From positions 94,628 to 158,627 of the forward strand of contig JAZROV010000002.1 in the NCBI GenBank assembly GCA_045648885.1: 64,000 nt of DNA. The letters run 5' to 3'. The notes beneath the pieces are model-generated. The model saw only the letters and a program-made list of their open reading frames with translations. It was not told the DNA's origin and did no database searches. The position numbers and the translations under genes are program-made. Position 1 is the stretch's first letter. Every line of letters starts with the position of its first letter. Below are positions 13,628 to 60,712 of the stretch, piece by piece. This stretch comes from Candidatus Enterousia sp. GTDB taxonomy: Bacteria; Pseudomonadota; Alphaproteobacteria; Rs-D84.

Positions 13628-14550
13628 AAACACCAAATTGGTTTTTAAAAAGAAATTTAATAAGTTTTTTACTTTACCCGCTTTCTGGGTTGTATTATGT
13701 TGCGTCCAGATGTGTTTTTGTTTTGCGGAAAAATCGTGAATATGTATCGCGTCGTCCTGTTATTTGTTTTGGCAATATTTTGGCTGGGGGGGTTGGTAAA
13801 ACACCGTTAGTTCGTGAGATGGCTCGTTTTTTTGATGCGCCGGTGGTTATGCGCGGATACAAAAAGACAAAATATACTGATAATGTTGGGGACGAAGCCA
13901 AAATGTTGATGAATGATGGAATTTTAGTGCATGTTGGAAATCGTAAAAGCAATCTGGTTTTATTAAATAAACAAAAATCAAATACCCCGATTATAATGGA
14001 TGATGGGTTTCAAAATTCGTCTATTAAAAAAGATATTTCTGTGTTGGTGTTTGATGAAAGTTTGGGGTTTGGAAACGGTTTTTTGTTGCCTGCGGGCCCA
14101 TTGCGTGAAAAACCGACAGCTATAAACCGCGCAGATGCCATTATCGTTATAAAAAGAAAAAAAATCGCAAAAAATTTTTATTTGCCAACTGATGTTCCTA
14201 TTTTTTATGCGACGACAAACGAAGATTGTCCGTATAATGCAAAAACTTCTGTGGTTGCTTTTGCAGGTATCGGATATCCAAAAAAATTTTTTGAAAATAC
14301 ACCATGTAAAATCGTGGCGCAACGTGTTTTCCCAGATCATTATCAATACACTGACCAAGATATTCACGATTTAATTAAATTGGCAGATGAAAAACATGCG
14401 CATTTATTGACGACTGAAAAAGATTGGGTTCGTTTACCAGATTGGGCAAAAGAAAAAATTGCTTTTTCGAAATTAAATATTCAAATTGAAAAAGATTTTT
14501 ACGATTGGATAAAGGAAAGGATACATGACAACAATAACAAAAAAAGTTAA
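13624..14550 (+). CDS. lpxK: tetraacyldisaccharide 4'-kinase
   Basis: P-loop GNILAGGVGKTPLV with length and context matching LpxK. ATGA overlap with the upstream gene. Confidence 0.7.
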   Translation: MKTPNWFLKRNLISFLLYPLSGLYYVASRCVFVLRKNREYVSRRPVICFGNILAGGVGKTPLVREMARFFDAPVVMRGYKKTKYTDNVGDEAKMLMNDGILVHVGNRKSNLVLLNKQKSNTPIIMDDGFQNSSIKKDISVLVFDESLGFGNGFLLPAGPLREKPTAINRADAIIVIKRKKIAKNFYLPTDVPIFYATTNEDCPYNAKTSVVAFAGIGYPKKFFENTPCKIVAQRVFPDHYQYTDQDIHDLIKLADEKHAHLLTTEKDWVRLPDWAKEKIAFSKLNIQIEKDFYDWIKERIHDNNNKKS

Positions 14551-15460
14551 AATATCCGGGGTTGGTATTCATTCTGGGTTGCCAGTTGATTTGGTTGTTT
14601 TGCCATCTAAGAAAAATGGGATTTTTTTTAAACGTGTTGATATGCCGGGTGCTGATTTAATTCCTGCCAGATTTGATAATGTTGGTGATACGTTTATGCG
14701 TAATACTACGATTGGCAAAAAAGATGGCGCACATGTTCAAACAATTGAACATTTGATGGCGACATTGTTTTTATTAGGTGTGGACAGTGCTGTTATCGAA
14801 ATCAATGGCCCCGAAACCCCGATTTTAGACGGCAGCGCCTATGAATTTTACAATGCGTTGAAAGACGCAGTCGGTAAAAAAACAAAAATGAAAAAAATCA
14901 TTGTTAAAAAGACAGTTGTTGCACACAGAAATGAATTAGCAAAACAATTACCTTTTTGGCGCCGTTTAAAGACGATAATTTTAAACCATACAGTTGGTCG
15001 GCGCGGAAATGGTTTCGTTAAATTGTCGCCAAATGACAAAGGATTATTTATCAATGCGACGTTGGTTTATCCTGATAAAATTATCGGGACACAATCGTTT
15101 TCTTGTGTGTTGGACGGAACAAAAAAATCTGTTGATAATTTTGTGAAAAATATTTCGAAATCTAGAACGTTTGGAAAATATTCTGAATGGGAATGGTTAA
15201 AGGCACACGGTATGGCACGTGGCGCAAATGAAAACAATATTATCGCGTTAAATGATTCAGGAGACGGAACATTGAATAAATTGCTGTATCCTGATGAATT
15301 TGTGCGGCATAAGATAATAGATGCTGTTGGCGATATGTTTACCAGTTCTGGATTTGTTTACGGTACGTTGGAATCGGTTAAAGGTTCGCATGCGTTAAAC
15401 AATTTGGTGTTAAGAAAATTATTCAGTGATAAATCTAATTATGAAATCATTGAAGAATAA
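14525..15460 (+). CDS. lpxC: UDP-3-O-acyl-N-acetylglucosamine deacetylase
   Basis: KISGVGIHSGLPV, HKIIDAVGDM and the zinc-deacetylase fold signature over about 310 aa. Confidence 0.8.
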   Translation: MTTITKKVKISGVGIHSGLPVDLVVLPSKKNGIFFKRVDMPGADLIPARFDNVGDTFMRNTTIGKKDGAHVQTIEHLMATLFLLGVDSAVIEINGPETPILDGSAYEFYNALKDAVGKKTKMKKIIVKKTVVAHRNELAKQLPFWRRLKTIILNHTVGRRGNGFVKLSPNDKGLFINATLVYPDKIIGTQSFSCVLDGTKKSVDNFVKNISKSRTFGKYSEWEWLKAHGMARGANENNIIALNDSGDGTLNKLLYPDEFVRHKIIDAVGDMFTSSGFVYGTLESVKGSHALNNLVLRKLFSDKSNYEIIEE

Positions 15461-15485
15461 AAAATTTTTTTAAGGAGGAAAGGCG

Positions 15486-15800
15486 ATGAAAAAAATAATG
15501 TTTATTTGTTTTGGTGTTTTGTTGGCGTCTTGTGCACAATCAACAAAAGAAGGCACGGGTTTAATAAGGGTAAACCAAGAACCAACAAATTGTGAATTTT
15601 TGTATGCTATTAAATCTGATTTTTCGGGGTATTCTGAACAAGACGCGTTCGATTTTGTGGAAAAAAGAATCGTGGAAGAAAACGGTTTTGGGGATACTTA
15701 TTACATCGAAAAACAAGATATTGCTGAAAATATCGGGGCGATATTTGGGCCAAAACATACCTATAAAATAAAAGCAAAAGTTTATAACTGTAAAAAATAA
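15486..15800 (+). CDS. small lipoprotein
   Basis: Signal peptide with lipobox LLASC. Confidence 0.4.
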   Translation: MKKIMFICFGVLLASCAQSTKEGTGLIRVNQEPTNCEFLYAIKSDFSGYSEQDAFDFVEKRIVEENGFGDTYYIEKQDIAENIGAIFGPKHTYKIKAKVYNCKK

Positions 15801-15892
15801 GTTTTTTATAGTGAGATAAGTGTGTTTTTATCTAATTTTCGTCTTTCTTTTTTTTTCGCGTTTATGTATAATAAATTTACATAGAGAGAGAA

Positions 15893-17140
15893 TTGATGAA
15901 ACAAGTCATAACCGTTCGTCGCAGAAAATATGCAACAGGTCTTTTTTGGCAGCCTGTAAATCCGGGCGTGACACCGTATCTTTATGCGCGACAATTGGTC
16001 GCAAAAAGCGATAAAAAATATACTCTGTTGACCGAATATAAATCGATGATCGGGTTGGCAGAATCGCGCGACGGTGTTCGGTCGGGAATGAATACTGCTG
16101 CGGCAGAGGTTATGAACGCATTTCCTGAATTTTCATCATTTTTGGGTGTTTTTCGTGTAGATAATCGGTTTTATCTGGTTGCGGTGCGTAATGGTGTTAT
16201 TATTCGTGATGTTTTGGTGGAAAAAGAAAGCGATGCCCGAAAATTATACGCTGAATTATCAAATATGCCAGATTGGGGGGCGTTGTTTGCCCCGTCAAGT
16301 TGGGGTATGCCTCGTTCCCAGGAAAAATTTTTGCAAGATATTGTGAAAAATGAATCTGTGGCACGGTTGCGTCAAATCAGTATTGTAAAATCTGTCGCGC
16401 CGTCAATTGTTTTGTTTTTAATTTTATTGGGTGTTGGTTTGTATTTTCTTTATTCTCCGTTGTTTAAATCTATGTCTGCGCCAAAAAGCACAGGGTTGAA
16501 TCCTGAATTGATGGCCGAATATCAAAAGCAATTGGAAGCGAAAAACCAAGAATTAGACAAAGAGTTTGAGATTGTAAAATCTGCATTGGTTTATCCATAT
16601 GATAATTTGCCCGATGTCATGGAACGGGCGCGGCTTTGTTATAAAGCAACCGGGTTTGTGATGCAGCCTGTGATGGGTTGGGACCAGAAAAATACAATGT
16701 GTGACGAAGAACATGTATCTGTGGTCTTTACGCGTGATTTTGGAACATTAAATGATTTTTATTTGGTTGGTGGTGATGTTATGCCGGGCGGTATAGTGCA
16801 CCAGGTATCTGATAATGAAATTCGTGTGCGTGCAAAATTGCCGGCATTAAAAACACATTCTTCGGTTGATGAACGTGACCAAGAAACGGCTATGCGTGAC
16901 ATAGTTTCTGTTTTTCAACAGGTAAATATGAAAGCGGGTATCAGGGCATCAAATGAAATTATTCGTAATAATAAAGAAAAAGCAACTGTGAATTTTATAG
17001 AAGTCAGCGCGAGTTCTAAATTAGTGCCGTCTGAATTTATGCAGATATTTAATGATTTTGATGGTGTTTATATGAAATCTGTTGGGTGGGATGCAAGAGA
17101 TAGAATCTGGAATTACAACGTTGTTATTTATACAAAATAA
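15893..17140 (+). CDS. bitopic inner-membrane assembly protein (GspL/PilO-like) of a T2SS/T4P-family apparatus
   Basis: 415 aa with an ~160-aa cytoplasmic domain, a single TM (SIVLFLILLGVGLYFLY) and a periplasmic domain. It lies directly upstream of the PilP-like, ATPase and platform genes. Confidence 0.35.
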   Translation: MMKQVITVRRRKYATGLFWQPVNPGVTPYLYARQLVAKSDKKYTLLTEYKSMIGLAESRDGVRSGMNTAAAEVMNAFPEFSSFLGVFRVDNRFYLVAVRNGVIIRDVLVEKESDARKLYAELSNMPDWGALFAPSSWGMPRSQEKFLQDIVKNESVARLRQISIVKSVAPSIVLFLILLGVGLYFLYSPLFKSMSAPKSTGLNPELMAEYQKQLEAKNQELDKEFEIVKSALVYPYDNLPDVMERARLCYKATGFVMQPVMGWDQKNTMCDEEHVSVVFTRDFGTLNDFYLVGGDVMPGGIVHQVSDNEIRVRAKLPALKTHSSVDERDQETAMRDIVSVFQQVNMKAGIRASNEIIRNNKEKATVNFIEVSASSKLVPSEFMQIFNDFDGVYMKSVGWDARDRIWNYNVVIYTK

Positions 17141-17152
17141 AAAGGTGAAAAA

Positions 17153-17824
17153 ATGTTAAAGAAAATCTGTTTTTATTTGTGCTTTGGTGTATTTTGTGTG
17201 TGCGTTGGTGTCAATGCGTATGCAGAAGAATTCGAAGAAGTTTTTATTGAAGAAAGAAGTCCAGATGAAATTTCTGCCCAGGCGTTGGAAGATTACCAGG
17301 TAGAAGGTTCTTTGTTTGAACGTATTACAAATCTGGAACAAGAAAAATTAGTTATGCAATTGGAAAAAGACCGTATCGAATTAGATTTGGCGTTGGACAG
17401 ATTGAACAAAGAAAAAATCAAAATCCAACAAGAATTAGAAGATATGTCTGGGCGTGCAGACCGTCAACAGCAAGAATTAGAATTGGCCAAGGCTCAATTG
17501 GAAGAACAAACCATGGAATTGAAACGCAAAATGGAAGCGTTGGATAACAGGGTAGAAGAAGCACCTGTACAAAGAGAAACGCCAAAAAGACAAGAAGAGC
17601 CAGTCGATACATCTGTGCAGATTGTTGGTAAATATAAATTATTAAATGTTGTTGGTGTTGGTAATCAATTACAGGCTACAATTCAAGATATTGCAACGGG
17701 TCAAAATAAACGCATAGCAGTTGGTAAGCAATTAGATGGATATACTGTCAAATCTATTTCGTTAAACGACGGAATTGTGTTTGAAAAAGATGGTGTTTCA
17801 GAAAATTTGAATGTTGGAAAATAA
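17153..17824 (+). CDS. PilP/GspC-HR-like periplasmic coiled-coil protein
   Basis: Signal peptide, a long coiled coil, and a C-terminal beta-domain VGKQLDGYTVKSISLNDGIVFEKDGVSENLNV. Confidence 0.35.
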   Translation: MLKKICFYLCFGVFCVCVGVNAYAEEFEEVFIEERSPDEISAQALEDYQVEGSLFERITNLEQEKLVMQLEKDRIELDLALDRLNKEKIKIQQELEDMSGRADRQQQELELAKAQLEEQTMELKRKMEALDNRVEEAPVQRETPKRQEEPVDTSVQIVGKYKLLNVVGVGNQLQATIQDIATGQNKRIAVGKQLDGYTVKSISLNDGIVFEKDGVSENLNVGK

Positions 17825-17827
17825 AAT

Positions 17828-19456
17828 ATGGCGAACGAAGATAATTCTTTTGTAGAAATGTCAAATAAACCGTCTGTGCCAGCCGGGTTGGAGAACGCGG
17901 GCAGTAAAGACATTTTGGAATATTTGTTTTCAAATGATAATAAATTGCTGACGGCGACATCTGCGGAATATGCTTTGTCAAAAGACACCCAAGGATTGGT
18001 TGCGTATTTTTCTGGTGGTGAAATAATTATATCCAGAACACATCGATATGATGGTCGCGTGTTGGCTTTCTTAGATTTATTGCATCGTAATAATATTGTA
18101 ACAAAACAGCCGTTTTATTCTGATTTGGCGTTGTTGTCAAATATTTATAAAACAAATGATCAACGTATTGGCGAAGCAGATGCATCACGTTTTGATTATG
18201 AAAACCAGATGCAGAAAGATTTTGTTGATATTATCGCGCGTGCGGCCGCTCAAAAGGTGTCTGATATTCACGTTGAAGTTGCAGACCAGACAACAATTTA
18301 TTTCCGTATTGATGGAAGTATGCAACCGGTTTTGGAATATAATTCTCAATGGGGGGAATCTTTTGTTCGTGCGGCATTTGCGTCTGCGGATATATCTAAT
18401 TCTTCGTATGCACAAAATGAATACCAGGCTGCCCAGAAAGACGGTCGAACCCCATTGCGTGGTACGCGTGATTTGTATTTGCCGTCGGCTGTGTTGGGGG
18501 TTCGTATGCAATTTAACCCGATTGCGTTCGGCAGTCAATATTTGGTTATGCGTTTGCTTTATGATAACCCCAGCGAAGGTATCAAAACCGAACAGGAATT
18601 TAATGATTATGAACAAAAATTATTGATGCGTTTGCGTTCGGCGCCAACAGGTTTGGTTGTGGTTGCAGGGCCTACATCTTCGGGTAAATCGACAACGCTG
18701 GTGCATAATATGGCGTTGATGTTGAAAGAACACAGATACGAAATCAATTTGATTACCGTGGAAGATCCGGCAGAACAGAAAATTTTCGGCGCGCATCAAA
18801 TGCCTGTGGTGAACGCGTCTAATGAAGAACAACGTGATGCGAAATTTACAGAAGCGTTGGCAGCGGCATTGCGAAGCGACCCTGATACAATGATGGTCGG
18901 TGAGGTTCGTACTTTGTCTGCGGCGCAATTGACGGTCAAAGGCGCGTTGTCTGGGCATAATGTGTGGACAACGTTGCATGCGAACTCTGCAATGGGTGCG
19001 TTGACGCGTTTGTTGGATATGGGGGTAGAAGCGTTTAAATTAAAAGACGAAACCATGATGCGTGGATTGGTTTCAATGCGTTTGTTTAAAAAACTTTGTC
19101 CGTATTGTCGTGAACGTTTGATTGATAAACCTGATTTGCCGGTGTATCAACGTATGAAAGAAGCGTTCGGTGATTTGGGACTGCAACAGGCGTTTGTTCG
19201 TGGCGCAGGTTGTGAAAATTGCAAGGGCGCAGGAACAATCGGGCGTATCAAAGCAGGCGAAATCATTTTAACAAACAGTGAATTTTTAAGTTTCGCACTG
19301 GCCGGTGAAACTGAAGCGGCTTTGCGCTATTGGCTTGAAAAATTAGACGGCAGAACATTGAAAGAAGCCGCCATAGAATTGATGTTAAAAGGTATCATCG
19401 GCGTGGACGAAGTAGAACGTTGGGTTGGATTGTTGGACAGACCGTGGGTATATTAA
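17828..19456 (+). CDS. type II secretion / type IV pilus assembly ATPase (GspE/PilB family)
   Basis: Walker A AGPTSSGKSTT, His box TTLHANSAMGAL, and a tetracysteine zinc motif CPYCRE...CENCKG. Confidence 0.8.
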   Translation: MANEDNSFVEMSNKPSVPAGLENAGSKDILEYLFSNDNKLLTATSAEYALSKDTQGLVAYFSGGEIIISRTHRYDGRVLAFLDLLHRNNIVTKQPFYSDLALLSNIYKTNDQRIGEADASRFDYENQMQKDFVDIIARAAAQKVSDIHVEVADQTTIYFRIDGSMQPVLEYNSQWGESFVRAAFASADISNSSYAQNEYQAAQKDGRTPLRGTRDLYLPSAVLGVRMQFNPIAFGSQYLVMRLLYDNPSEGIKTEQEFNDYEQKLLMRLRSAPTGLVVVAGPTSSGKSTTLVHNMALMLKEHRYEINLITVEDPAEQKIFGAHQMPVVNASNEEQRDAKFTEALAAALRSDPDTMMVGEVRTLSAAQLTVKGALSGHNVWTTLHANSAMGALTRLLDMGVEAFKLKDETMMRGLVSMRLFKKLCPYCRERLIDKPDLPVYQRMKEAFGDLGLQQAFVRGAGCENCKGAGTIGRIKAGEIILTNSEFLSFALAGETEAALRYWLEKLDGRTLKEAAIELMLKGIIGVDEVERWVGLLDRPWVY

Positions 19457-20531
19457 TATGACAAAATTAGATTATTGGTGGGCAAAATTTAGTTTCAGAT
19501 TTGATACGCAAAAGCGTATGGCGGTCAGTAATAAAATCGCGTCATTGTTACGGAATGATTTTACTTTGATGGATGCGTTGCATCGTATTGAAATGATTGA
19601 ATCTCAAAATGGTAAAAAACCAGATGAAGCCTTTGCCATAGCTATGCGTGAAATCCAAAAAAATATGGAACAGGGGATGAGTTTTTCTGAGGCTACGCGT
19701 GGGTGGGTACCCCCAGATGAAACGTTATTATTGATGTCTGGAAATATGTCCAGTTTGGTTATATCTTTGGAAAATGTTTCGCGCGTTGTCAACGGGGTCA
19801 GTCGCATTAAACGTGCCATGACATCTGCGCTGGCATATCCGTTATTTCTGTTGGTGTTGACAATCGGTATTATTGTTATGGTCGGTGTTTATTTGGTGCC
19901 ACCATTGACAGAGGCAGCAGGCAGCAACATTGTTTGGCACGGGTCTGCACGATCTTTGATTTGGGCGTCTGATTTTTCAAATAAATATCTTTATCCTTTT
20001 TCCATAGGTTTGGGGGTTGCGATTCTTTTGATATGGATATCGCTTGCAAATTGGACTGGTAAATTGCGGACTGTGTTTGATAATTATCCGCCGTGGAATA
20101 TATATAAACTGCAAATATCGGTCAGTTGGATGATGTCTTTGGCTGCTATGGTTTCTGCGGACGTTTCTGTCCCAGATGCAATGCGGTTGTTGGCTGATAA
20201 TTCAAATCGGTATTTGGCGAATATTTTAAATGAAGCGCTGCATTATATTTCAAACGGTGATAATTTAGGAACTGCATTGGCCCAGACTGGTAAAAAATTC
20301 CCCAGTGAAGAAATCATAGGTGATTTGACGATTTATTCTGATATGAATGATTTTGATAAAAATATTAATAAAATCGCTAATGATTATATGGAAAATGCAG
20401 TGCGTCGTATGGAATCTTTGTCCAGTGCTATGAATGCAGCGGGGATGGCGTTGGTATCCGTTGTTATGGGTTGGGTCGTGTTGGGAACTTTTGCAATGCA
20501 AGAGCAAATTACGGCCGTATTGACAACCTAG
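19425..20531 (+). CDS. GspF/PilC-like inner-membrane platform protein
   Basis: 368 aa with three predicted TM helices at GspF-like positions, located immediately after the GspE-family ATPase. Confidence 0.5.
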   Translation: MDCWTDRGYINMTKLDYWWAKFSFRFDTQKRMAVSNKIASLLRNDFTLMDALHRIEMIESQNGKKPDEAFAIAMREIQKNMEQGMSFSEATRGWVPPDETLLLMSGNMSSLVISLENVSRVVNGVSRIKRAMTSALAYPLFLLVLTIGIIVMVGVYLVPPLTEAAGSNIVWHGSARSLIWASDFSNKYLYPFSIGLGVAILLIWISLANWTGKLRTVFDNYPPWNIYKLQISVSWMMSLAAMVSADVSVPDAMRLLADNSNRYLANILNEALHYISNGDNLGTALAQTGKKFPSEEIIGDLTIYSDMNDFDKNINKIANDYMENAVRRMESLSSAMNAAGMALVSVVMGWVVLGTFAMQEQITAVLTT

Positions 20532-44720: not shown

Positions 44721-44993
44721 ATGAAAATAGAACGTACCAGAAAAAATAACAAAAATATCATTAAATCGCGTCTTTGGTGGCTGGTGTTGTTTGCGTTTAT
44801 TTTTGGTTTTGCGACCGGTTATGTGACGCATTATTTAATTGTAAATTGGCATGGTTTCTGGGCGGTCTGTTCGGATGGCAATCGGCCTGATAAAAACGGT
44901 TGTTGTATGGGTGAAGTTTATACCGATGCAGGTGACGGTTGGATGGTTTGTTGTCCAGACGGGGGTGATAACTGTTTCCCACCGATTAAATAA
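44721..44993 (+). CDS. small membrane protein
   Basis: 90 aa with one TM helix and a Cys-rich tail. Confidence 0.3.
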   Translation: MKIERTRKNNKNIIKSRLWWLVLFAFIFGFATGYVTHYLIVNWHGFWAVCSDGNRPDKNGCCMGEVYTDAGDGWMVCCPDGGDNCFPPIK

Positions 44994-45007
44994 AAGGCTT
45001 AACAAGA

Positions 45008-45035
45008 AATCCGCCGTTTGTTGGCGGGTTTTTTG
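45008..45035. terminator. rho-independent terminator
   Basis: ccgccgtttgttggcgg with a T-run. Confidence 0.55.
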
Positions 45036-45758
45036 TTATTCAATTACAAAACTGCGCGGATAATAGTCACTGTAAAAACGACCGTCAATCGCTGTAAATT
45101 TCAGAACACAATAATTTGGATCTGTGGGGCCGCCGGGATAATATTCTGTATCCCCGTCACGCCAAATCATTTTTTTAGTTTCGATGTCTGTTAATACCTG
45201 CATCGTTCCGCGCAATAACATTCCTTTGAACCCGCGGTCGTCACAGAAATAAATACTAGCTTTTGCATTGTTTTTATAATGTGCGACGCGCAGGGAAAAA
45301 GTATTGGTCGTAAAATAGAATACTTTGATTCCTTCACGAACGCGCGGGGATAACATAGCCTTGGTACACGGAAAACCGTTTTCATCAACAGACGATATAT
45401 ATGTGATTGGCAATGTGTCTGCCATTGTCGAAATCATTTCTTTGATGCCAATCAACGCAGGATTTTCGATTTTTGTGTTCATGATATTCAGCCTATTGTG
45501 CCAACGTTTCAGATTTGGAAAATACATTTTCATTTGGCCGATATATTCTTCTTTGCTGATTGGTTGGGGCAGATTTTTGTTAACATCATTTATGAATTGC
45601 GCACAATGTTCAATCATTTCATCCATTGTAAAATCTTGTGTGAATTTGCCGTCTTTGTAGCAATAAATGCAATATTCTGAATTTTTTGTGCCATCAATAT
45701 TTGTTCCAAACAAAGATTCTTCAACCATAGGCATTCCGCAACTTTGACATATGTTCAT
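45036..45758 (-). CDS. zinc-ribbon plus PNPOx-like (FMN-binding split-barrel) domain protein
   Basis: CQSCGMP...CIYCY zinc ribbon at the N-terminus. The C-terminus resembles the pyridoxamine 5'-phosphate oxidase/general stress protein 26 family. Confidence 0.4.
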   Translation of the reverse strand: MNICQSCGMPMVEESLFGTNIDGTKNSEYCIYCYKDGKFTQDFTMDEMIEHCAQFINDVNKNLPQPISKEEYIGQMKMYFPNLKRWHNRLNIMNTKIENPALIGIKEMISTMADTLPITYISSVDENGFPCTKAMLSPRVREGIKVFYFTTNTFSLRVAHYKNNAKASIYFCDDRGFKGMLLRGTMQVLTDIETKKMIWRDGDTEYYPGGPTDPNYCVLKFTAIDGRFYSDYYPRSFVIE

Positions 45759-45850
45759 AATTATTTCCTTTCGTTATGTTGATGAATTGTAGCATTTAAT
45801 ATTTTTTATGTAAAATATAAATCTCTGTCAATTGGCAGAGTGTGTGTTTT

Positions 45851-45946
45851 GTGTGGGAGTATGCTTGCACAAATCGAGCAGAAAACAAGCAAGAATTTAC
45901 TGATTTAATGTTGCAGATAAAATTGTTCAAAGAGAAGTGGCTGTAA
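45851..45946 (+). pseudogene. P4-type integrase C-terminal fragment (scar) abutting an att-like core
   Basis: Translates to ...YACTNRAENKQEFTDLMLQIKLFKEKWL*, matching the AYNRAEY..ERR.MMQ.WADYL ending of P4-family tyrosine recombinases. It is preceded by ttttgtgtgggagt (tRNA-Tyr 3'-end-like). Confidence 0.35.
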
Positions 45947-45947
45947 A

Positions 45948-46498
45948 TTATTTCTTCTTAAATTTTGCAAAACAGTTAGTGTCACGAAAACGATTTTCAT
46001 ATACTAACCATCTGTCTTGTTTCAAAACACCTTCTAATTCGTATCCTAATTTTTTTGCTACGTTTACAGAATTTTTATTTAACACATCGTTATGAATAAT
46101 TATTTTATTAAAACCATTTCTAAACAATTCTTGTTCCAATAAACGCACAGATTCCATAACATAGCCGTTTCCACGATAGTCATTTGCCAACCAAAAACCT
46201 AATGCGACTTTTTTATTTTTTATATCAACTTCTACAGCACCGCAACTGCCTATAATCACATTATTTAATACAATTGCATACTCATAGGCATCGTTATTAT
46301 CCCATTTTTTATCAGATTGAATTAAAAAATTATGTGTATCTTTTTCGGATTTTGTATCGTTTAACCACTGCATCCAAGGCAACAAGAAATTTCTATTTTG
46401 AACCAAAACTTCATACATCAATTTCGCATTATCTAATGTTGGTTCCAAATGCATCAATGTGATTCTTGGACCTTTTAATACATATTTCATAATATCTC
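45948..46498 (-). CDS. GNAT N-acetyltransferase (RimJ/RimL-like)
   Basis: PRITLMHLEPTLDNAKLMYEVL...LLPWMQW and a GNAT core. The longer track ORF (to 46664) probably over-extends, and the Met at 46498 fits the family N-terminus. Confidence 0.5.
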
Positions 46499-46593
46499 CT
46501 TTTGATACGAATTGTATCATAATTTTATTTGTATTTGAAACTAAAACCGCCTTGGTGGATTCGAACGGAGCAAACACTTGGAAATCTAAAGAA

Positions 46594-46725
46594 AAACCGC
46601 ACTTTTTAAGTTCGGTGTATCTTTTGGTGGGAGTGGGTGGATTGGCTCGGTCAAAGACCTGCACCGCATTCGTTAGCGCTCAAACTGCGTTTACACTTGT
46701 TTTCGCTTACTCATAGACGAACCAA
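46594..46725. repeat. ~130-bp direct repeat, copy 1, containing a tRNA-Tyr 3'-end fragment (tggtgggagtgggtggatt)
   Basis: Near-identical to 47816-47947. Confidence 0.7.
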
Positions 46726-46808
46726 ATGAACTTCGTTTATATGGCCGAATACCATAAACCACATCACAGCAAAAACAAAAACCAACCGCAAGGGTTGGTT
46801 TGTGCTTT

Positions 46809-46904
46809 TGGTGGGATACCGCTTGCATTAATCGAGCAAAAAACAAACAACTATTCACCGATTTGATGCAACGGGTAAAAGAATTTAAAGAAAAATGGTT
46901 ATGA
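46809..46904 (+). pseudogene. second P4-type integrase C-terminal fragment abutting an att-like core
   Basis: ...WWDTACINRAKNKQLFTDLMQRVKEFKEKWL*. The att-like core ttttggtggga precedes it. Confidence 0.35.
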
Positions 46905-46983
46905 TTTCACCTGTGGGTGAAATTGAAAAAAATAGAAAGGTATGATACAATTATGATAAGAATAATAAAAAAGGTGATGTTTA

Positions 46984-47748
46984 ATGGCTATTATACTTGG
47001 TGGTGGCGGCAGTGCAGAACAAACCATTATTACAAATAAGTTATTTGAGAGTTTGATAGATTCTAAGAAACCAATTTTGTATATTCCTTTGGCATGGAAT
47101 CATTATGATGAAGGTTATCAAAATTGTAAGAAGTTTTTAATTGGAGAATTTTGCAATATTAAACATGGTGAAATAGAAGTTGTACAATCTGCCGATGAAA
47201 TTTTAAATAAAAATTTGTTTGATTATTCTGCTATTTTTATAGGTGGTGGGAATACCTATAAATTATTAAAAGGATTGAAAGATAGTGGTGCGTTTGGAAA
47301 AATAAAACAGTATACTGATAACGGTGGTATAGTTTATGGTGGCAGTGCTGGTGCGGCAATATTTGGAAAAGATATTGATTCTATTTTGTATATGGATACA
47401 AATAATGTTGGATTAAAAGATACAAATGGCTTTAATTCTTTGTTCGGTTTTTCGCTTACTGTACATTATACAAATCAAAGTGAGGAGAAGCATAAAAAAG
47501 CCACAGAATATTTAATAGAATATTCTATGCGTGAACCGATAATCGCGTTACCAGAAGAAGATAGCCTTTATACAGATGGAAAAATTGTAAAAATTGTTGG
47601 AACAAGACCTTGGTATATTTTTAATAAAGGCAAAAGTATACAATTAAACCCAGGTGTTGAATATAAAAAGGCTAATTTTACCAACATTGTAAAGAATGTT
47701 GGTGTATTCGAACAGAGCAAAGTATTGGAAAACCGGAGCATTCGATAA
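46984..47748 (+). CDS. S51-family peptidase (PepE/cyanophycinase-like)
   Basis: IFIGGGNTYKLL and the catalytic serine context GGSAGAAIFG. Confidence 0.55.
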   Translation: MAIILGGGGSAEQTIITNKLFESLIDSKKPILYIPLAWNHYDEGYQNCKKFLIGEFCNIKHGEIEVVQSADEILNKNLFDYSAIFIGGGNTYKLLKGLKDSGAFGKIKQYTDNGGIVYGGSAGAAIFGKDIDSILYMDTNNVGLKDTNGFNSLFGFSLTVHYTNQSEEKHKKATEYLIEYSMREPIIALPEEDSLYTDGKIVKIVGTRPWYIFNKGKSIQLNPGVEYKKANFTNIVKNVGVFEQSKVLENRSIR

Positions 47749-47815
47749 TCAGTAAAAATTAGTTGTTTTCAAAAACGCCATTATCGAACTCGTAAAATTA
47801 TTAGAAATCCAACAA

Positions 47816-47947
47816 AAAACCGCACTTTTTAAGTTCGGTGTATCTTTTGGTGGGAGTGGGTGGATTGGCTCGGTCAAAGACCTGCACCGCATTCGTTAGC
47901 GCTCAAACTGCGTTTACACTTGTTTTCGCTTACTCATAGTCGAACCA
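47816..47947. repeat. ~130-bp direct repeat, copy 2, containing a tRNA-Tyr 3'-end fragment
   Basis: See 46594-46725. Confidence 0.7.
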
Positions 47948-48030
47948 AACAAACTGCGTTTGTATGGTCTAATACCACAAACCACGACCGACAAAATAAA
48001 AAATGCACCCGTTGGGTGCATTTTTTGTTT

Positions 48031-48117
48031 TGGTGGGAGTGGGTGGATTCGAACCACCTCAGTCGTAAGACAACAGATTTACAGTCTGCCCCGGCTCTCC
48101 AACTCCGGCGCACGCCC
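48031..48117 (-). tRNA. tRNA-Tyr (anticodon GTA), long variable arm
   Basis: The reverse complement GGGCGTGCGCCGGAGTTGGAGAGCCGGGGCAGACTGTAAATCTGTTGTCTTACGACTGAGGTGGTTCGAATCCACCCACTCCCACCA has the GCAGACTGTAAATCTG anticodon arm, as in bacterial tRNA-Tyr. It has one C4·U69 acceptor mismatch. Confidence 0.7.
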
Positions 48118-48151
48118 AGAACTCTTTGTCCGCCTTTGGCAAGACATTCTG

Positions 48152-48226
48152 TGGTGCGAGCAGCGGGAATCGAACCCGCATTTCAAGCTTGGAAGGCTTG
48201 CATTCTAGCCCTTGAACTATGCTCGC
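48152..48226 (-). tRNA. tRNA-Gly (anticodon TCC)
   Basis: The reverse complement GCGAGCATAGTTCAAGGGCTAGAATGCAAGCCTTCCAAGCTTGAAATGCGGGTTCGATTCCCGCTGCTCGCACCA is a clean cloverleaf. Confidence 0.8.
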
Positions 48227-55879: not shown

Positions 55880-57460
55880 ATGAATATGTATCAAGTGTTA
55901 AAGCAAGTGGCGCAAGAATCGCCAAATGCTTTGTTTTTGGTACGCGAAAAAATCAGTTTTAAACAGGCTATGACCCTGATTCATGCACGGGCAAATACGC
56001 TGCATAAACTGGGGGTAAAATTCGGTGATGTTGTTGGTTTGTTGGCACATAATATACCTGAATTTCCTTTGACTCTTTTTGCGTGCTGGTATTTGGGGGC
56101 AACTGTTTTGTTGCTGGACACAAATTTAACACCGTTTGAATATGATAATATGACGAAAACGGTCGGTTGCAAATTGGTGTGTGCTGAAAAATCTTTCTTT
56201 TATGATACTAAAAAATTTAAGTTTTTTGATATTCAAACGCCAGATGATGGTGTGGATAAAGATTTAAAGCCGGCCAAAGTAGATGAAAATGATATTGCAA
56301 CTATGTCGTTTACATCTGGGTCAACCGGTACACCAAAGGTTGTTCCGTTGACGCACGGGAATTTGAAGACGTCGTCTGATTGTTATTCGGACATGGGGCA
56401 ATGGATACATAAAAATGAAATTATGTATGGATTTTTGCCGCTTTATCATGTGTTTGGTTTTGCAGCGGGGATTTTAGCGCCTTTGCATTTCCATATGGGA
56501 ATTTTATTACAGCCGACGGTGAATCCGAAAAATATTTTGGACGATTTTAAAACATATCGGCCACATTGTATTCCTGCGGTGCCACGCCTTTATGAGGTTT
56601 TTCGTAATAAAATAATCGAAGGTATCAAAGCGCAACACAAATGGTGGTTGGTTTCGTTTGTTTTGAAAAACCAAAAGTTTTTGAAAAAAATCGGCATGGG
56701 CTGGTTGGTGCGAATGATTCAAAAGCCTTTGTTGGCGATATTCGGTGGACGTGTGAATCTGATGATTGCAGGTGGTGCCGCTACAAAACCGGAAGTCGAA
56801 AGTTTCTATGAATCTTTGGGGTTGGCATTTGTCCAGGGATATGGAATGACTGAAACGGTTGGACCGTTTTGTTGTTCGCGTCCGGTCAAACACCGTGTAC
56901 CGTTTGCGTTTGGAACGCCGGTCGGATGTTCAGAATGCACTATTCGTGATATGGATGAAAACGGTGTTGGAACACTTTGGGTGCGTGGACCGAATGTCTT
57001 TCGTGGATATTTGAATAATAAATCTGCGAACGATGAATCTTTTGATAAAGATGGTTGGTTCAACACTGGTGATTTGGTCTATATGGATAAAAACAAACAA
57101 TATCATTTCGCAGGTCGTAAAAAACAAGTCATTGTTTTAGACAGTGGTAAAAATGTTTATCCTGATGAATTAGAAGGTTTGTTCATTGAAATCGAAGGCG
57201 TCAAAAATGTTGCGGTTTTTGAACACAAAGTGAATAATAAAACTGTCACATATGGCGTATTCCAGGTGGACGAAGATATGACCATGGAAAAGCTGGCTAA
57301 GGCCGTTGCAGAGGCAAACAAAAAAGTCGCGTCCTATAAATGGGTGACGCATTTTGCAATGACAACGGAAGATTTACCGATGACCAGTACTCAAAAGATT
57401 AAACATCATGTTGTTCGTCAGAATTTAATTGATGGAAAATATCCGAACAAACATGAATAA
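55880..57460 (+). CDS. AMP-dependent acyl-CoA synthetase/ligase, paralog 1
   Basis: TSGSTGTPKVV, GYGMTETVGP, TGDLVYMD and GRKKQVIVLDSGKNVYPDELE ANL-superfamily motifs. Confidence 0.75.
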   Translation: MNMYQVLKQVAQESPNALFLVREKISFKQAMTLIHARANTLHKLGVKFGDVVGLLAHNIPEFPLTLFACWYLGATVLLLDTNLTPFEYDNMTKTVGCKLVCAEKSFFYDTKKFKFFDIQTPDDGVDKDLKPAKVDENDIATMSFTSGSTGTPKVVPLTHGNLKTSSDCYSDMGQWIHKNEIMYGFLPLYHVFGFAAGILAPLHFHMGILLQPTVNPKNILDDFKTYRPHCIPAVPRLYEVFRNKIIEGIKAQHKWWLVSFVLKNQKFLKKIGMGWLVRMIQKPLLAIFGGRVNLMIAGGAATKPEVESFYESLGLAFVQGYGMTETVGPFCCSRPVKHRVPFAFGTPVGCSECTIRDMDENGVGTLWVRGPNVFRGYLNNKSANDESFDKDGWFNTGDLVYMDKNKQYHFAGRKKQVIVLDSGKNVYPDELEGLFIEIEGVKNVAVFEHKVNNKTVTYGVFQVDEDMTMEKLAKAVAEANKKVASYKWVTHFAMTTEDLPMTSTQKIKHHVVRQNLIDGKYPNKHE

Positions 57461-57490
57461 AAGATTTGGTTTTTATAAAAGGATGAAAAG

Positions 57491-59071
57491 ATGAATATGT
57501 ATGATTTATTACTTAAAAATGTAAAACGCAACCCGGATACTGTATTTCTGGTTCGCGAAAATGTGAATTTTAAAGATTTTGAAAAAATGGTGCGTGCGCG
57601 TGCGACAACTTTGCATAATGCGGGCGTGAAAGCTGGCGATGCGGTTGGTTTGTTGTCGCATAACATACCGCAATTTCCATTGACACTGTTTGCAATTTGG
57701 TATTTGGGGGCACGTGTGTTGCTGTTGGATACAAATTTAACTGCGACTGAATATGATAATATGACGCATTTAACAGATTGCAAATTGGTGTGTGCTGAAA
57801 AATCTTTCTTTTACGATGCCAAAGGTTTTAAATTTTTTGATATAGAAACAGAAGATAAAAAGACAGACGAAAAATTAAAACAATATCAATCAAAAGATGA
57901 CGATATTGCAACTTTGTCTTTCACATCTGGATCAACCGGTGTGCCAAAGATTGTGCCGTTGACACATTTTAATTTGGTTTCGTGTTCTGATAATTTGGAA
58001 TATTTAAATCAATGGTTAAAACCTGGTGAAATATTTTATGCGTTTTTGCCGCTTTATCATGTGTTTGGTTTCGCAGTTGGATTTTTAGCACCACTGCATT
58101 TCGGTATGGGAATATTGTTGCAATCGACAATCAATCCAAATGCGATATTGCAAGATTTTGCGCAATATAAACCACATGTTATTCCGGCTGTGCCGAAATT
58201 GTGGGAAATTTTCCGCAAAAAGATTATCGAAGGAATCAAAGCCAAAAAGAAGTGGGCGTTGGTTTCTTTCATTATGAATAATCAGAAATTATTGCGGGCA
58301 ATCGGTTTGGGTAAATTGGTTGATAAAGTTTTAACCCAGATTCGTTCTGTGTTCGGTGGTCGTGCCAGATTGCTGGTGGCGGGTGGTGCCGCTACAAAAC
58401 CGGAAGTGGAAAAATTCTATACTCAATTGGGTATGGCGTTCGTCCAGGGTTATGGTTTGACTGAAACCGTGGGACCAATCTGTTGTTCGAAACCATTGAA
58501 AAAACGTGTTGCATATGCGTTCGGTGCACCGATGGGTGATACAGAATGTCAAATTCGCAATAAAGACGAAAATGGTATTGGAATGCTTTGGGTGCGCGGT
58601 AACCAGATTTTGGGTGGTTATTTGAATAACGCAGATGCAAACAAAGACTGTTTCGACAAAGACGGATTTTTCTGCACTGGCGATTTGGTGTCTGTTGATA
58701 AAAACGGTGAATACCATTTTGCAGGTCGTAAAAAACAAGTTATTGTTTTGGACAGTGGTAAAAATGTTTATCCTGATGAACTGGAAGGTTTGTTCATTGA
58801 AATTCCAGGCGTGAAAAATGTTGCGGTCTTTGAACACGAAGTTGGTGGCAAAACTGTTGCATACGGTGTGTTCAGCGTCGAAGAGGGCATGACGATGGAT
58901 AAATTGGCGGCGGCTGTGGCGGCCACGAACAAAAAGGTTGCGTCTTATAAGTGGGTGACGCATTTTGCGATGACGACCGATGATTTGCCAGTGACCAGCA
59001 CTCAAAAGATTAAACATCACGTTGTGCGTCAATGGTTGATTGATGGTAAATATACACAAAGACATGAATAG
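57491..59071 (+). CDS. AMP-dependent acyl-CoA synthetase/ligase, paralog 2
   Basis: Same motifs as paralog 1. Identical length (526 aa) with long identical stretches. Confidence 0.75.
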   Translation: MNMYDLLLKNVKRNPDTVFLVRENVNFKDFEKMVRARATTLHNAGVKAGDAVGLLSHNIPQFPLTLFAIWYLGARVLLLDTNLTATEYDNMTHLTDCKLVCAEKSFFYDAKGFKFFDIETEDKKTDEKLKQYQSKDDDIATLSFTSGSTGVPKIVPLTHFNLVSCSDNLEYLNQWLKPGEIFYAFLPLYHVFGFAVGFLAPLHFGMGILLQSTINPNAILQDFAQYKPHVIPAVPKLWEIFRKKIIEGIKAKKKWALVSFIMNNQKLLRAIGLGKLVDKVLTQIRSVFGGRARLLVAGGAATKPEVEKFYTQLGMAFVQGYGLTETVGPICCSKPLKKRVAYAFGAPMGDTECQIRNKDENGIGMLWVRGNQILGGYLNNADANKDCFDKDGFFCTGDLVSVDKNGEYHFAGRKKQVIVLDSGKNVYPDELEGLFIEIPGVKNVAVFEHEVGGKTVAYGVFSVEEGMTMDKLAAAVAATNKKVASYKWVTHFAMTTDDLPVTSTQKIKHHVVRQWLIDGKYTQRHE

Positions 59072-59131
59072 TTTGATTTTGCGCCTGGGGGTATTTTTCC
59101 CCCAGACGCAATTTAAAAAAAGGTTTGTATT

Positions 59132-60712
59132 ATGAATATGTATCAAAAATTGGAAAATGCAGCAAATCAATGGCCGGAAAATTTATTTCTGGTGCGCGAA
59201 GGTGTAACGTATTCTCAATTTATTCAACAGGTGCGTGCGCGTGCAGCAACTTTGAACGAATTAGGAATTAAACATGGTGATGTGGTTGGTGTTTTATCTC
59301 ATAATTTACCACAATTTCCTTTGACGCTGTTTGCAATTTGGTATTTGGGTGGTGTTGTTTTAATGCTGGATACGAATTTGACGCCTTTTGAATATGATAA
59401 TATGGCGCAAATTGCAAATTGCAAATATGTTTGTGCGGAACCATCGTTTTTCTATAAAACAGATAAATTCAAATTTATAGATATAACACGCAAAGACGGG
59501 GATATAGATTATGATTTGCGTCCATATCCATCTGAATCAACGGATATTGCGACTATGTCTTTCACATCGGGGTCAACCGGCACGCCAAAGGTTGTTCCGT
59601 TAACACATTTTAATTTAACAGAATGTGCAAATTCATTGGAAGATATGTCTGATTATTATCATTCTGGTGAAATAATGTATGGCTTTTTGCCACTTTATCA
59701 TATCTTTGGTTTCGCGGTTTGCATATTGGGGACAATTCAATATGGGGGCGGTCTGGTATTACAGCCGGTTATAAACCCAAAATATATTTTGGACGATTTT
59801 CAAAAATTCAAACCACACGTTATCCCAATCGTGCCACGCGTTTTGGAATTGTTCCGTAATAAAATTATCGATGGAATGAAACAGCAAAAAAAATGGCGCG
59901 TTGCATCGTTCATTTTGAATAACCAAAAAACTTTGAAAGATATGGGGCTAGATTTCGTTGTTCGCAAAGTCCAAGAACCATTGTTGGCTATTTTCGGTGG
60001 ACGTGTAAAATTGCTGATTGCGGGTGGTGCGGCCACAAAACCAGAGGTTGAAAATTTCTATGAATCACTTGGACTGGCGTTTATCCAGGGTTATGGTTTA
60101 ACCGAAACTGTTGGGCCAATTTGTATTTCAAAACCGACAAACAAACGTATGCCATATTCTGTGGGTGCATCTACATCAAACAACGAATGCGAAATTCGTG
60201 ACAAAGATGAAAATGGCGTCGGTGTTTTGTGGGTGCGTGGACACCAGGTGTTTAATGGATACCTGAATAATCCAGAAGTCAATGCGACAGTTTTTGATGA
60301 AAATGGCTTTTTCAATACTGGCGATATGATGTACATGGATAAAAACGGCGAATTGCATTTTGCAGGTCGTAAAAAACAAGTCATCGTTTTGGACAGTGGT
60401 AAAAATGTTTATCCTGATGAACTGGAAGGTTTATTCATGGAAATTCCAGGCGTTAAAAATGTTGCGGTCTTTGAACACAAAGTTGGCGATAAAACCGTTG
60501 CATACGGCGTATTCCAGGTTGATGAAAATATGACGCTGGAAAAATTGTCGGCCGAAGTTGCAAACGCAAACAAAAAGGTTGCATCCTATAAATGGGTGAC
60601 GCATTTTGCGATGACAACGGATGATTTACCAATGACCAGCACGCAAAAGGTTAAACATCATCTGGTGCGACAAAATTTGATTGACGGTAAATATCCAGAC
60701 AGAAAGGAATAA
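59132..60712 (+). CDS. AMP-dependent acyl-CoA synthetase/ligase, paralog 3
   Basis: Same motifs as paralog 1, 526 aa. A terminator lies downstream at 60716-60745. Confidence 0.75.
   Translation: MNMYQKLENAANQWPENLFLVREGVTYSQFIQQVRARAATLNELGIKHGDVVGVLSHNLPQFPLTLFAIWYLGGVVLMLDTNLTPFEYDNMAQIANCKYVCAEPSFFYKTDKFKFIDITRKDGDIDYDLRPYPSESTDIATMSFTSGSTGTPKVVPLTHFNLTECANSLEDMSDYYHSGEIMYGFLPLYHIFGFAVCILGTIQYGGGLVLQPVINPKYILDDFQKFKPHVIPIVPRVLELFRNKIIDGMKQQKKWRVASFILNNQKTLKDMGLDFVVRKVQEPLLAIFGGRVKLLIAGGAATKPEVENFYESLGLAFIQGYGLTETVGPICISKPTNKRMPYSVGASTSNNECEIRDKDENGVGVLWVRGHQVFNGYLNNPEVNATVFDENGFFNTGDMMYMDKNGELHFAGRKKQVIVLDSGKNVYPDELEGLFMEIPGVKNVAVFEHKVGDKTVAYGVFQVDENMTLEKLSAEVANANKKVASYKWVTHFAMTTDDLPMTSTQKVKHHLVRQNLIDGKYPDRKE

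Follow-up and report, generated by a model that had tools for sequence, protein, structure and literature searches.

The segment at 45.8-48.1 kb of the window, the whole 64-kb stretch of Candidatus Enterousia DNA analysed here, is best read as an array of single-gene cassettes that is anchored at a tRNA-Tyr gene and carries no integrase of its own. It would represent an integron-like variant of the tRNA-anchored additive islands, a reading to which we give a probability of about three in four. The anchor is tRNA-Tyr(gta), located on the minus strand at 48031-48117; the last seven nucleotides of this gene (CCCACCA, or TGGTGGG on the plus strand) form the putative recombination core. tRNA-Gly(tcc), at 48152-48226 on the same strand, accompanies tRNA-Tyr at nearly every array locus. 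Both genes were identified with ARAGORN and Rfam, and ARAGORN called four tRNAs only in the entire window.

Architecture and spread of the cassettes

Each cassette, read on the plus strand of the window, starts with TGGTGGG and continues with a 5' module of ~100 nt, often a promoter, one or two cargo genes and a 3' module (preD) of ~95 nt, after which the next core follows. TGGTGGG is present at both ends of every cassette, and the 3' module ends in a bidirectional-terminator hairpin, AAACCGCAC-N7-GTGCGGTGTATCTTT. Using a DNA-pattern scan, the same layout was found in 28 species-representative metagenome-assembled genomes (MAGs) (Alphaproteobacteria / Candidatus Enterousia; order Rs-D84) and in 37 rumen or gut metagenome contigs, the loci sampled being module-positive ones only. 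Arrays of this type are thus common to a lineage of gut Alphaproteobacteria with reduced genomes, comprising Candidatus Enterousia and relatives. The same order of module, cargo, 3' module and tRNA-Tyr/Gly was seen in small-ORF contigs. One to three modules are present per locus. The 62 complete cassettes measure 564-2056 bp, with a median of 924, and their longest open reading frame (ORF) has the orientation of the module in 39 cases and the opposite one in 23. The 88 cargo ORFs fall into 69 clusters, and about half of them have no Pfam match. Among the others are GNAT, S51, GT2 glycosyltransferase, Asp/Glu racemase, P-loop kinase-like, DUF3419, cupin, HxlR, serine hydrolase, T5orf172, S41 and PNPOx proteins as well as two Fic/DOC proteins; the Pfam scans of the cargo revealed no recombinase. 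Promoter-like motifs follow 37 of 78 modules, compared to 2.5% of control windows, and about half of the module copies carry both the hairpin and a sigma-70-type promoter.

The copies of the tRNA end that punctuate the array had already been recognised in part. An earlier note on this DNA had placed tRNA-Tyr at the position given above, in agreement with both programs, and had described a duplication of its 3' end in repeats of ~130 bp. This duplication was confirmed, and the real repeat is longer: it covers 228 nt with 86% identity (46561-46788 and 47784-48011). Inside it lies a tract of 125 nt that is 100% identical (46592-46716 and 47815-47939) in surroundings of ~80% identity and that corresponds approximately to the repeat as first delimited. 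The ~130-bp unit combines three pieces: ~35 nt from the end of the 3' module, 19 nt of the tRNA and ~70 nt from the start of a spacer element, X. The last 19 nt of tRNA-Tyr, TGGTGGGAGTGGGTGGATT on the plus strand, occur exactly three times in the window (46625, 47848 and 48031), and no fourth copy was found there when up to three mismatches were allowed. Exactly four copies of TTTTGGTGGGA are present (46622, 46806, 47845 and 48028), against ~0.03 expected by chance, and there is a degenerate fifth copy with a 1-nt insertion. The two further att-like cores of the note, each running into a short ORF, are thus present, the one at 46806 as an exact copy and the one at 45845 in degenerate form. The two short ORFs (45842-45946 and 46800-46904, 34 codons each) are homologous to each other, with 71% nucleotide identity and a tblastn E value of 2e-12; they share frame and stop position and have no other match within the window. 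As judged within the window, the repeats do not belong to a REP-like genome-wide family, an alternative that the note itself had raised. The GNAT and S51 genes that it had listed carry the expected domains in Pfam (Acetyltransf_3, E = 5.5e-17, and Peptidase_S51, E = 6.5e-27). Exact-protein look-ups of the GH3 and S51 proteins of the window found neither of them on record.

On its left side, the array is bounded by a bidirectional terminator-like hairpin (45823-45840), detected in a terminator scan of both strands, which is the native-terminator partner of the leftmost junction; a hairpin lies right before the core at the leftmost junctions of 52 arrays. Core a (TTTTGTGTGGGAGT, 45845-45858, plus strand) is the copy of TGGTGGG with the 1-nt insertion and is probably no longer recombinable. 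It is followed by the truncated 5' module of cassette A (45847-45946, plus strand; 84% identity to the module of locus L001), of which only module positions 1-93 are left, hairpin and promoter having been lost. The cargo of cassette A is the GNAT acetyltransferase gene (45948-46520, minus strand), which lies opposite to the module and has a promoter-like site at 46539-46511; a homologue with 77% identity is present in L033 outside the recognisable array. The 3' module of cassette A (46545-46621, plus strand) contains a TTCGAAC motif and a terminator-type hairpin, ACCGCAC...GTTCGGT, in which a G>T change is common to both copies of the window. In core b (46622-46643, plus strand), TTT precedes 19 nt that match the 3' end of tRNA-Tyr exactly; this core is at the same time the 3' end of X1, a structured tRNA-like element on the minus strand (46625-46775). 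Between X1 and cassette B, the terminator scan detected another bidirectional terminator hairpin (46779-46801).

Cassette B begins at its left junction with core c (TGGTGGG, 46809-46815, plus strand). Its 5' module (46809-46927, plus strand) holds the sequence of the ORF at 46800-46904 and has three parts, namely an invariant stretch of ~30 nt that includes the hairpin GCTTG-CATTAAT-CGAGC, ~60 nt with coding-like substitutions, and the hairpin ATTTCACC-TGTG-GGTGAAAT. The top-scoring site in a promoter scan was a sigma-70-like promoter for the S51 gene (46923-46951, plus strand; TTGAAA-17-TACAAT with an upstream TG). The Peptidase S51 gene itself (46984-47748, plus strand) is the cargo, and its last ~17 codons extend into the 3' module; the module proper is located at 47749-47845 (plus strand; 89% identity to preD of L003) and carries a terminator-type hairpin. 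A repeat at 46552-46584 that resembles the S51 C-terminus turned out to be 3' module sequence, which the S51 ORF enters by chance. Core d (47845-47866, plus strand) has the same composition as core b, TTT and the exact 19-nt copy, and also forms the 3' end of X2, the second structured tRNA-like copy (47848-47998, minus strand). Cassette A thus adjoins X1 and cassette B adjoins X2. The intrinsic terminator of tRNA-Tyr, with a 13-bp stem, was located by the terminator scan at 47998-48026 on the minus strand.

tRNA-Tyr is intact wherever it has been retained, with covarying stems. Its acceptor stem has a C4:U69 mismatch in every genome examined (the window and 23 other loci), and pair 6:67 and the T stem covary. 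As the mismatch is universal in the clade and the neighbouring pairs covary, it was rejected as an integration scar and is regarded as a feature of the lineage.

Junctions and a possible route of insertion

The TGGTGGG sites that are flanked by a recognisable arm fall into five classes of junctions. On the left of the core, unrelated native terminators are joined to a module in 52 cases and to tRNA-Tyr in 30, while the 3' module is joined to a module in 34, to X, Y (a second spacer family) or other sequence in 28, and to the body of tRNA-Tyr in 13. TGGTGGG and a T run are all that the five classes have in common. From their sequences, they are the attP-, attL-, attR- and attB-like combinations that would be expected from recombination within TGGTGGG. 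On the tRNA strand this core reads CCCACCA and comprises the last three bases of the acceptor stem, the discriminator base and CCA; X and Y have longer copies of the tRNA 3' end, of 15-19 nt, at their left ends. One cassette (L025, 5625-6480) is located at the 3' end of tRNA-Leu(tag), where the overlap with tRNA-Tyr at the junction is the CCCACCA heptamer only.

Cassettes are mobile between genomes. The S51 cassette of the window is 96.7% identical to that of L006, 95.4% to that of L012 and 94.7% to that of L003/L004, and the flanking genes are different there; the spacer adjoining it has ~72% identity. The left flank and the S51 cassette of L003 can be aligned with those of L006 over 5,058 nt at 96.5% identity, and the two sequences diverge directly after TGGTGGGAGT. 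Past this point, on the tRNA side, L006 carries further cassettes and L003 a spacer and the tRNA. The same cassettes beside different neighbours were also observed in L018 and L068 and in L024 and L027.

A scheme in which a circular cassette (3' module/TGGTGGG/5' module) recombines site-specifically with terminator/TGGTGGG/tRNA could account for this arrangement. The crossover would take place within the 7 bp of the core described above, which stretch from the end of the acceptor stem through the discriminator base to CCA, and the 5' module would serve as the recombinase-binding arm. Insertion would regenerate the tRNA and supply it with the terminator of the cassette, older inserts being displaced away from the tRNA. 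For the window, the oldest insert would then be cassette A with its GNAT gene, of which the core is now mutated, the module cut at position 93 and the cargo inverted. X1 would have been added next, followed by the insertion of the intact S51 cassette B and the addition of X2. Finally, 125 nt of both 3'-module/core/X junctions may have been made identical by a recent gene conversion or duplication, as suggested by the perfect tract together with the G>T change common to the 3'-module hairpins.

The enzyme was searched for in 576 kb of DNA, i.e., the window and 70 loci (71 sequences, 66 non-redundant array loci). No tyrosine recombinase was found in these 576 kb by tblastn with XerC, XerD, lambda Int and IntI1, nor by screening 1,379 six-frame ORFs with a crude hidden Markov model (HMM) of the catalytic domain made from four sequences. 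With gamma-delta resolvase and IS200 TnpA as queries, tblastn detected one small serine recombinase only, in an unrelated island in L005, and the precomputed Pfam annotation of three 20-kb loci likewise lacks a recombinase. The outcome implies that the enzyme is unlinked and must act in trans. By analogy, it is most likely a tyrosine recombinase, because the shared core is 7 bp long and the overlap region of these enzymes is 6-8 bp. A dif-like site for XerCD was rejected: by eye, only GGTGCG of the XerC arm matches.

Other elements were observed at the same tRNA. A prophage-like element with a ParB_N-N6_N4 methylase and DUF5681 adjoins the same core, TGGTGG(A/G)/GTTGTAAATTAGTACGG, in L009 (1105-3860) and L053 (1-4607). 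Its position makes phage-borne integrases acting in trans a candidate source of the recombinase activity. A 346-aa ORF beside the core in L053 was discarded as an integrase, having no Pfam match and no recombinase motifs. Neither the module, whether searched together with the core or alone, nor the left end of the prophage-like element of L009 and L053 was matched by viral contigs, and 80 relatives of the ParB-methylase in IMG/VR (at most 51% identity) contain no tRNA-Tyr fragment or 3'-module-like site. L005 carries an insert of a different class (13095-20156), an island that follows a 17-nt tRNA-Tyr fragment with the breakpoint in the T loop. It encodes a small serine recombinase (Resolvase and HTH), a MORN-repeat protein, PLDc_2 and DUF3768.

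The 5' module, the spacer elements and competing explanations

The first ~30 nt after the core (N4-5 followed by GCTTGCAYTAATCGAGCAGAAAA) are almost invariant, including the third codon positions, which points to a constraint on the DNA itself. Within this stretch, a 5-bp stem with a 7-nt loop begins five bases past TGGTGGG; the T arm of the tRNA, GGTGG-ATTCGAA-CCACC, has the same geometry and begins four bases past TGGTGGG. The module hairpin, the stem of which never varies, may by this likeness be a mimic of the T arm. The following ~60 nt show a 3-nt periodicity, with entropies of 0.46, 0.46 and 0.74 by codon position and a ratio of nonsynonymous to synonymous polymorphism (pN/pS) of 0.41 in the FWWE frame versus 0.75-1.1 in most other frames. 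Values almost as good were obtained for the antisense frame with the same wobble position (pN/pS 0.52; synonymous fraction 0.51 vs 0.47), so that the coding-like signal may lie on either strand. The only start codons are GTG or TTG inside the stem of the upstream terminator, and by eye there is no Shine-Dalgarno sequence; translation of the module in the integrated state appears unlikely. No upstream partner ORF and no parent protein of the module were found. A structured RNA was considered and rejected, since RNAalifold found essentially no structure on either strand in 79 unique copies.

X is a spacer of ~160 nt that in many MAGs is located between the last cassette and the tRNA-Tyr terminator; in L001 it lies on the far side of the cassette. 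Read in the sense of the tRNA, it consists of two hairpins, GGTTCGA, an insert of ~75 nt with two helices and AATCCACCCACTCCCACCA, after which a terminator follows. RNAalifold predicted 15 pairs in the insert on the basis of 12 copies, and 12 of the 15 show compensatory double changes. Pairing was possible in 96% of the cells versus 71% in shuffled alignments, and in 13-42% when the partners were slid by one to three columns. The covariation score was 0.78 versus 0.28 in shuffles, a value reached by 0 of 500. By these alignments X has a conserved structure, and its G-U pairs make an RNA in the tRNA sense the most likely form of the element. It was not recognised by ARAGORN, and Rfam gave nothing at E <= 1, nor in a permissive mode on 236 nt. 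Since X ends in the tRNA-Tyr 3' sequence and a terminator, it would offer the same target as the tRNA itself. Its copies may represent either a small insertion with a breakpoint in the T loop or a duplication of X.

Y, of 160-210 nt, lies between the cassettes and tRNA-Tyr in other loci and is absent from the window. It was observed in L005 (12860-13095), L006 (5969-6195), L017 (6394-6620), L015, L026, L031, L032, L033, L063 and L069. Read in the orientation of the tRNA, the two ends of Y, GGG(G/A)GYGGGTGG at the 5' side and CCACCCRC(T)CCC-ACCA at the 3' side, pair with each other to form a minihelix of 11-12 bp with the same unpaired T as in tRNA-Tyr. The interior contains covarying hairpins and a short conserved ORF-like stretch, the end of which lies in a long hairpin. 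One frame of this stretch has a stop codon in 10 of 10 copies, and another reads G(E/D)Y(E/A)(N/D)(E/T)(Q/H)LxK(S/F/Y)* in 8 of 10. The layout (RNAalifold energy -38.9) recalls that of tmRNA but is without a T loop, and neither ARAGORN nor Rfam called Y, save for a weak match to tmRNA_permuted (E = 0.64) that spans the tRNA-Tyr 3' end and the start of Y. The locus thus yields two uncatalogued structured tRNA-like elements. Beyond the tRNA-Tyr terminator (window 47982-48042) the 3' end of the tRNA is also repeated in inverted and partly degenerate form, over 29 nt with 83% complementarity; in Y-type loci this copy is 13-16 nt long and perfect. As a consequence, tRNA end, terminator and copy could form one long hairpin.

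To the left of the array, between a conserved gene of ~90 aa and the first recognisable cassette, gene content differs among relatives (window 44721-45758; L001 6206-9799; L005 7190-9957; L033 397-3069). The genes there encode a Zn-ribbon/PNPOx protein (window 45036-45758), PNP_UDP_1 and S41, or GNAT and TfoX_N, and may be old cassettes without their ends; in L033, the homologue with 77% identity to the GNAT of the window is located in this region. On the other side, at 55880-60712 of the window, three successive ORFs of exactly 526 aa each (55880-57460, 57491-59071 and 59132-60712) appear to have arisen from an acyl/aryl-CoA ligase-type gene that was triplicated in tandem; in L001, the gene at the syntenic position is AMP-binding (PF00501).

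In the earlier note, the short ORFs and their surroundings had been interpreted as a graveyard, in which three or more P4-type prophages or islands had decayed at a single tRNA, the ORFs being scars of integrase C-termini and GNAT and S51 the surviving cargo. Such an origin would fit the recurrent copies of the tRNA 3' end, the degenerate leftmost unit, the coding-like substitution pattern and common stop codon of the ORFs, and the resemblance by eye of ACxNRAxNKQxFxDLM to AYNRAEY..RR.MMQ. Larger elements also occur at this tRNA elsewhere, namely the prophage-like one in L009 and L053 and the island with the 17-nt tRNA fragment in L005. However, no similarity to recombinases, the point on which the note had made its interpretation depend, was found: the peptides match 0 Pfam families at E <= 1 and only a family of unknown function in PHROGs (E = 0.036), and their best match in a profile search of the PDB (E = 1.5) is not a recombinase. 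A word-indexed search of 5.8 billion proteins yielded 41 relatives, all of 35-83 aa, and an exhaustive HMMER profile search of 1.84 billion representatives gave 32 matches, all of 43-119 aa, so that a carrier protein of more than 119 aa is lacking from both sets. Conservation in every relative begins exactly at FWWE, the translation of TTTTGGTGGGA, and the parts upstream, unrelated to one another, are translations of terminators or spacers; at cassette-cassette junctions, too, the sequence before the core is a non-coding terminator. The would-be catalytic Tyr is not conserved and is replaced among copies by S, T, N or A. Moreover, one ~100-nt module stands at the head of ~80 cassettes in which a standard 3' module is combined with unrelated cargo, an arrangement that independent decay would not have produced. 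The S51 unit is an intact standard cassette, 95-97% identical in other species, and the ~130-bp repeat, rather than being inert att debris, is largely a conserved structured element. The graveyard interpretation is therefore largely refuted, and we consider it very improbable. What was retained of it is repeated insertion at the tRNA-Tyr 3' end with displacement of older inserts, together with the degenerate state of the leftmost unit. Scars of integrases and a merely passive decay of the locus are not supported.

Several observations also weigh against an array of site-specific cassettes. Circular cassettes were not found, as no contig had a terminal overlap or a long internal direct repeat, and no empty site was observed among the module-positive loci sampled. 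No recombinase was identified in the array-flanking 576 kb, where the queries were approximate and the HMM comprised four sequences, so that a very divergent integrase could escape. Only 63% of the cassettes carry their cargo in module orientation, and the coding-like middle ~60 nt of the module are not explained by a pure binding-site role. The left breakpoint of X is in the T loop and not in the 7-bp core, and X could be the remnant of a different element that integrates there. The 125-nt perfect tract, finally, indicates that homologous recombination also shapes the array. It might even be the only process at work, with module, 3' module and tRNA as homology arms by which cargo is swapped and stacked after DNA uptake; minimal mobile elements are reportedly a comparable case of homologous exchange, alongside replacement islands. 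The identical tract in a context of ~80% does point to a recent homologous exchange in the window, the conserved flanks, with ~100 nt, have a length sufficient for RecA, and no recombinase is found nearby. Nevertheless, the tRNA-Leu cassette shares only 7 bp with the usual target, and the breaks lie exactly at TGGTGGG against many unrelated native terminators, X, Y and the prophage-like element. Homology between L003 and L006 stops at the core, and tandem repeats of the arms would be deleted by homologous recombination, not built. Exchange without any dedicated site-specific recombination is for these reasons judged quite unlikely.

The coding-like part of the module might alternatively be the detached 3' end of a missing gene, of a recombinase or another element, that spans attP in an autonomous parent, the cassettes being non-autonomous derivatives that exchange modules with this parent. 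Genes spanning attP are said to exist in SSV1-type archaeal integrases and Myxococcus phage Mx8. The pN/pS of 0.41, the excess of third-position changes, conservative replacements of an amphipathic-helix-like kind and a frame that runs directly out of the core all agree with this idea, and since assemblies would show a gene that is split by integration as fragments only, the lack of a full-length protein could be explained. It is opposed by the absence of an N-terminal partner ORF at any tRNA-side core in ~65 loci, where the tRNA side is always a terminator-containing 3' module, X, Y or a native terminator, by the lack of viral contigs with the module, by the almost equal antisense wobble-sharing frame (pN/pS 0.52) and by the first 30 nt, which are invariant even at third codon positions. 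We regard a detached gene end as unlikely. The cassette-array reading itself could be extended to a new, integron-analogous gene-capture system built on tRNA mimicry. The cassette site would imitate the acceptor end and T arm of tRNA-Tyr, an unlinked recombinase would insert after the CCCACCA of tRNA-Tyr and occasionally of tRNA-Leu, X and Y would be extra landing pads, and the coding-like part of the module would perhaps be the split 3' end of the recombinase gene. This fuller version is offered tentatively, as a possibility with the odds against it; if true, it would be the main route of gene gain in an obligate-partner lineage with genomes of <1 Mb.

Related systems

Variable islands that lie next to a single tRNA gene in a streamlined genome and are punctuated by partial copies of this tRNA are known as a general phenomenon. 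In the additive islands and tycheposons that exemplify it, the elements are, as far as characterised, much larger and encode a recombinase themselves. No description of the present cassette family was found in the literature, and the papers that mention Enterousia treat metabolism and genome reduction. The closest likeness is to the flexible genomic island fGI-2 of 'Ca. Methylopumilus', an additive island in which the last 20 bp of tRNA-Lys recur (PMC10872708). Both are variable islands by a single tRNA in a small genome, with copies of the tRNA 3' end and mostly hypothetical cargo, and both vary in size and grow by successive insertion at the same site. Unlike fGI-2, the array described here is made up of standardised units: a cassette measures 0.56-2.1 kb, is framed by a conserved 5' and a conserved 3' module, and brings its own terminator and often a promoter; the core is 7 bp at the CCA end, and the cassette type recurs in at least 28 species.

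Mobile elements in which tRNA genes are targeted include the tycheposons of Prochlorococcus, which have their own tyrosine or serine recombinase (doi 10.1101/2020.12.28.424599). Tandem arrays of islands at other tRNA genes or at ssrA are reportedly known as well, for example from Dehalococcoides (PMC3146451). The cassettes share with these elements the tRNA target, tandem stacking, the displacement of older inserts by newcomers and a role as the main source of flexible genes where few other mobile elements are present. Tycheposons and tandem islands, however, carry a recombinase and usually replication genes and measure several to tens of kilobases, whereas the cassettes have neither and are ~1 kb in size. 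Cis-mobilizable elements (CIMEs) are sporadic deletion derivatives of integrative and conjugative elements, and integrative mobile elements exploiting Xer (IMEX) and pdif modules are Xer-dependent. They, too, are site-bounded segments that are mobilised by a recombinase supplied in trans, but the present cassettes form a uniform family with a site in a tRNA gene, and their likeness to dif is, by eye, limited to GGTGCG.

With integrons, the cassettes have in common their arrangement in arrays of small units that mostly hold one gene, extremely diverse cargo, the newest unit beside the primary site and the lack of a recombinase in the cassettes. For the same reasons, the array could be considered a chromosomal integron or one of the clusters of attC sites lacking integron-integrases (CALIN), in which 3' module/core/module would be an unusual attC site, as the units are mostly single-gene, the largely unknown cargo includes GNAT and Fic/DOC proteins, and the recombination sites are conserved. 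We think this extremely improbable. Neither IntI nor another tyrosine recombinase is adjacent in the 66 array loci (576 kb), and the core TGGTGGG is part of a tRNA gene and not GTTRRRY. Instead of a long imperfect palindrome with conserved structure and varying sequence, the sites have a conserved sequence and a simple 7-bp terminator stem, and RNAalifold finds no conserved fold of the module. The primary site is a tRNA 3' end, about half of the cassettes have their own promoter, all have a terminator, and cargo orientation is mixed, 37% being inverted.

Strongly reduced genomes are usually poor in mobile elements. Those of Rs-D84/Enterousia are smaller than 1 Mb, and the organisms are thought to depend on a partner cell (PMC12306168). 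Standardised cassettes on one tRNA, equipped with promoter and terminator, would explain how accessory genes such as those for acetyltransferases, peptidases, glycosyltransferases, Fic toxins and many proteins of unknown function are sampled in this lineage. Once the recombinase is found, a core of 7 bp, small conserved arms and a tRNA as target would make the system directly testable, and it could then also serve as a compact integration tool. Besides integrons, the cassettes would add a second natural solution for the capture of single genes at a fixed, expression-neutral site.

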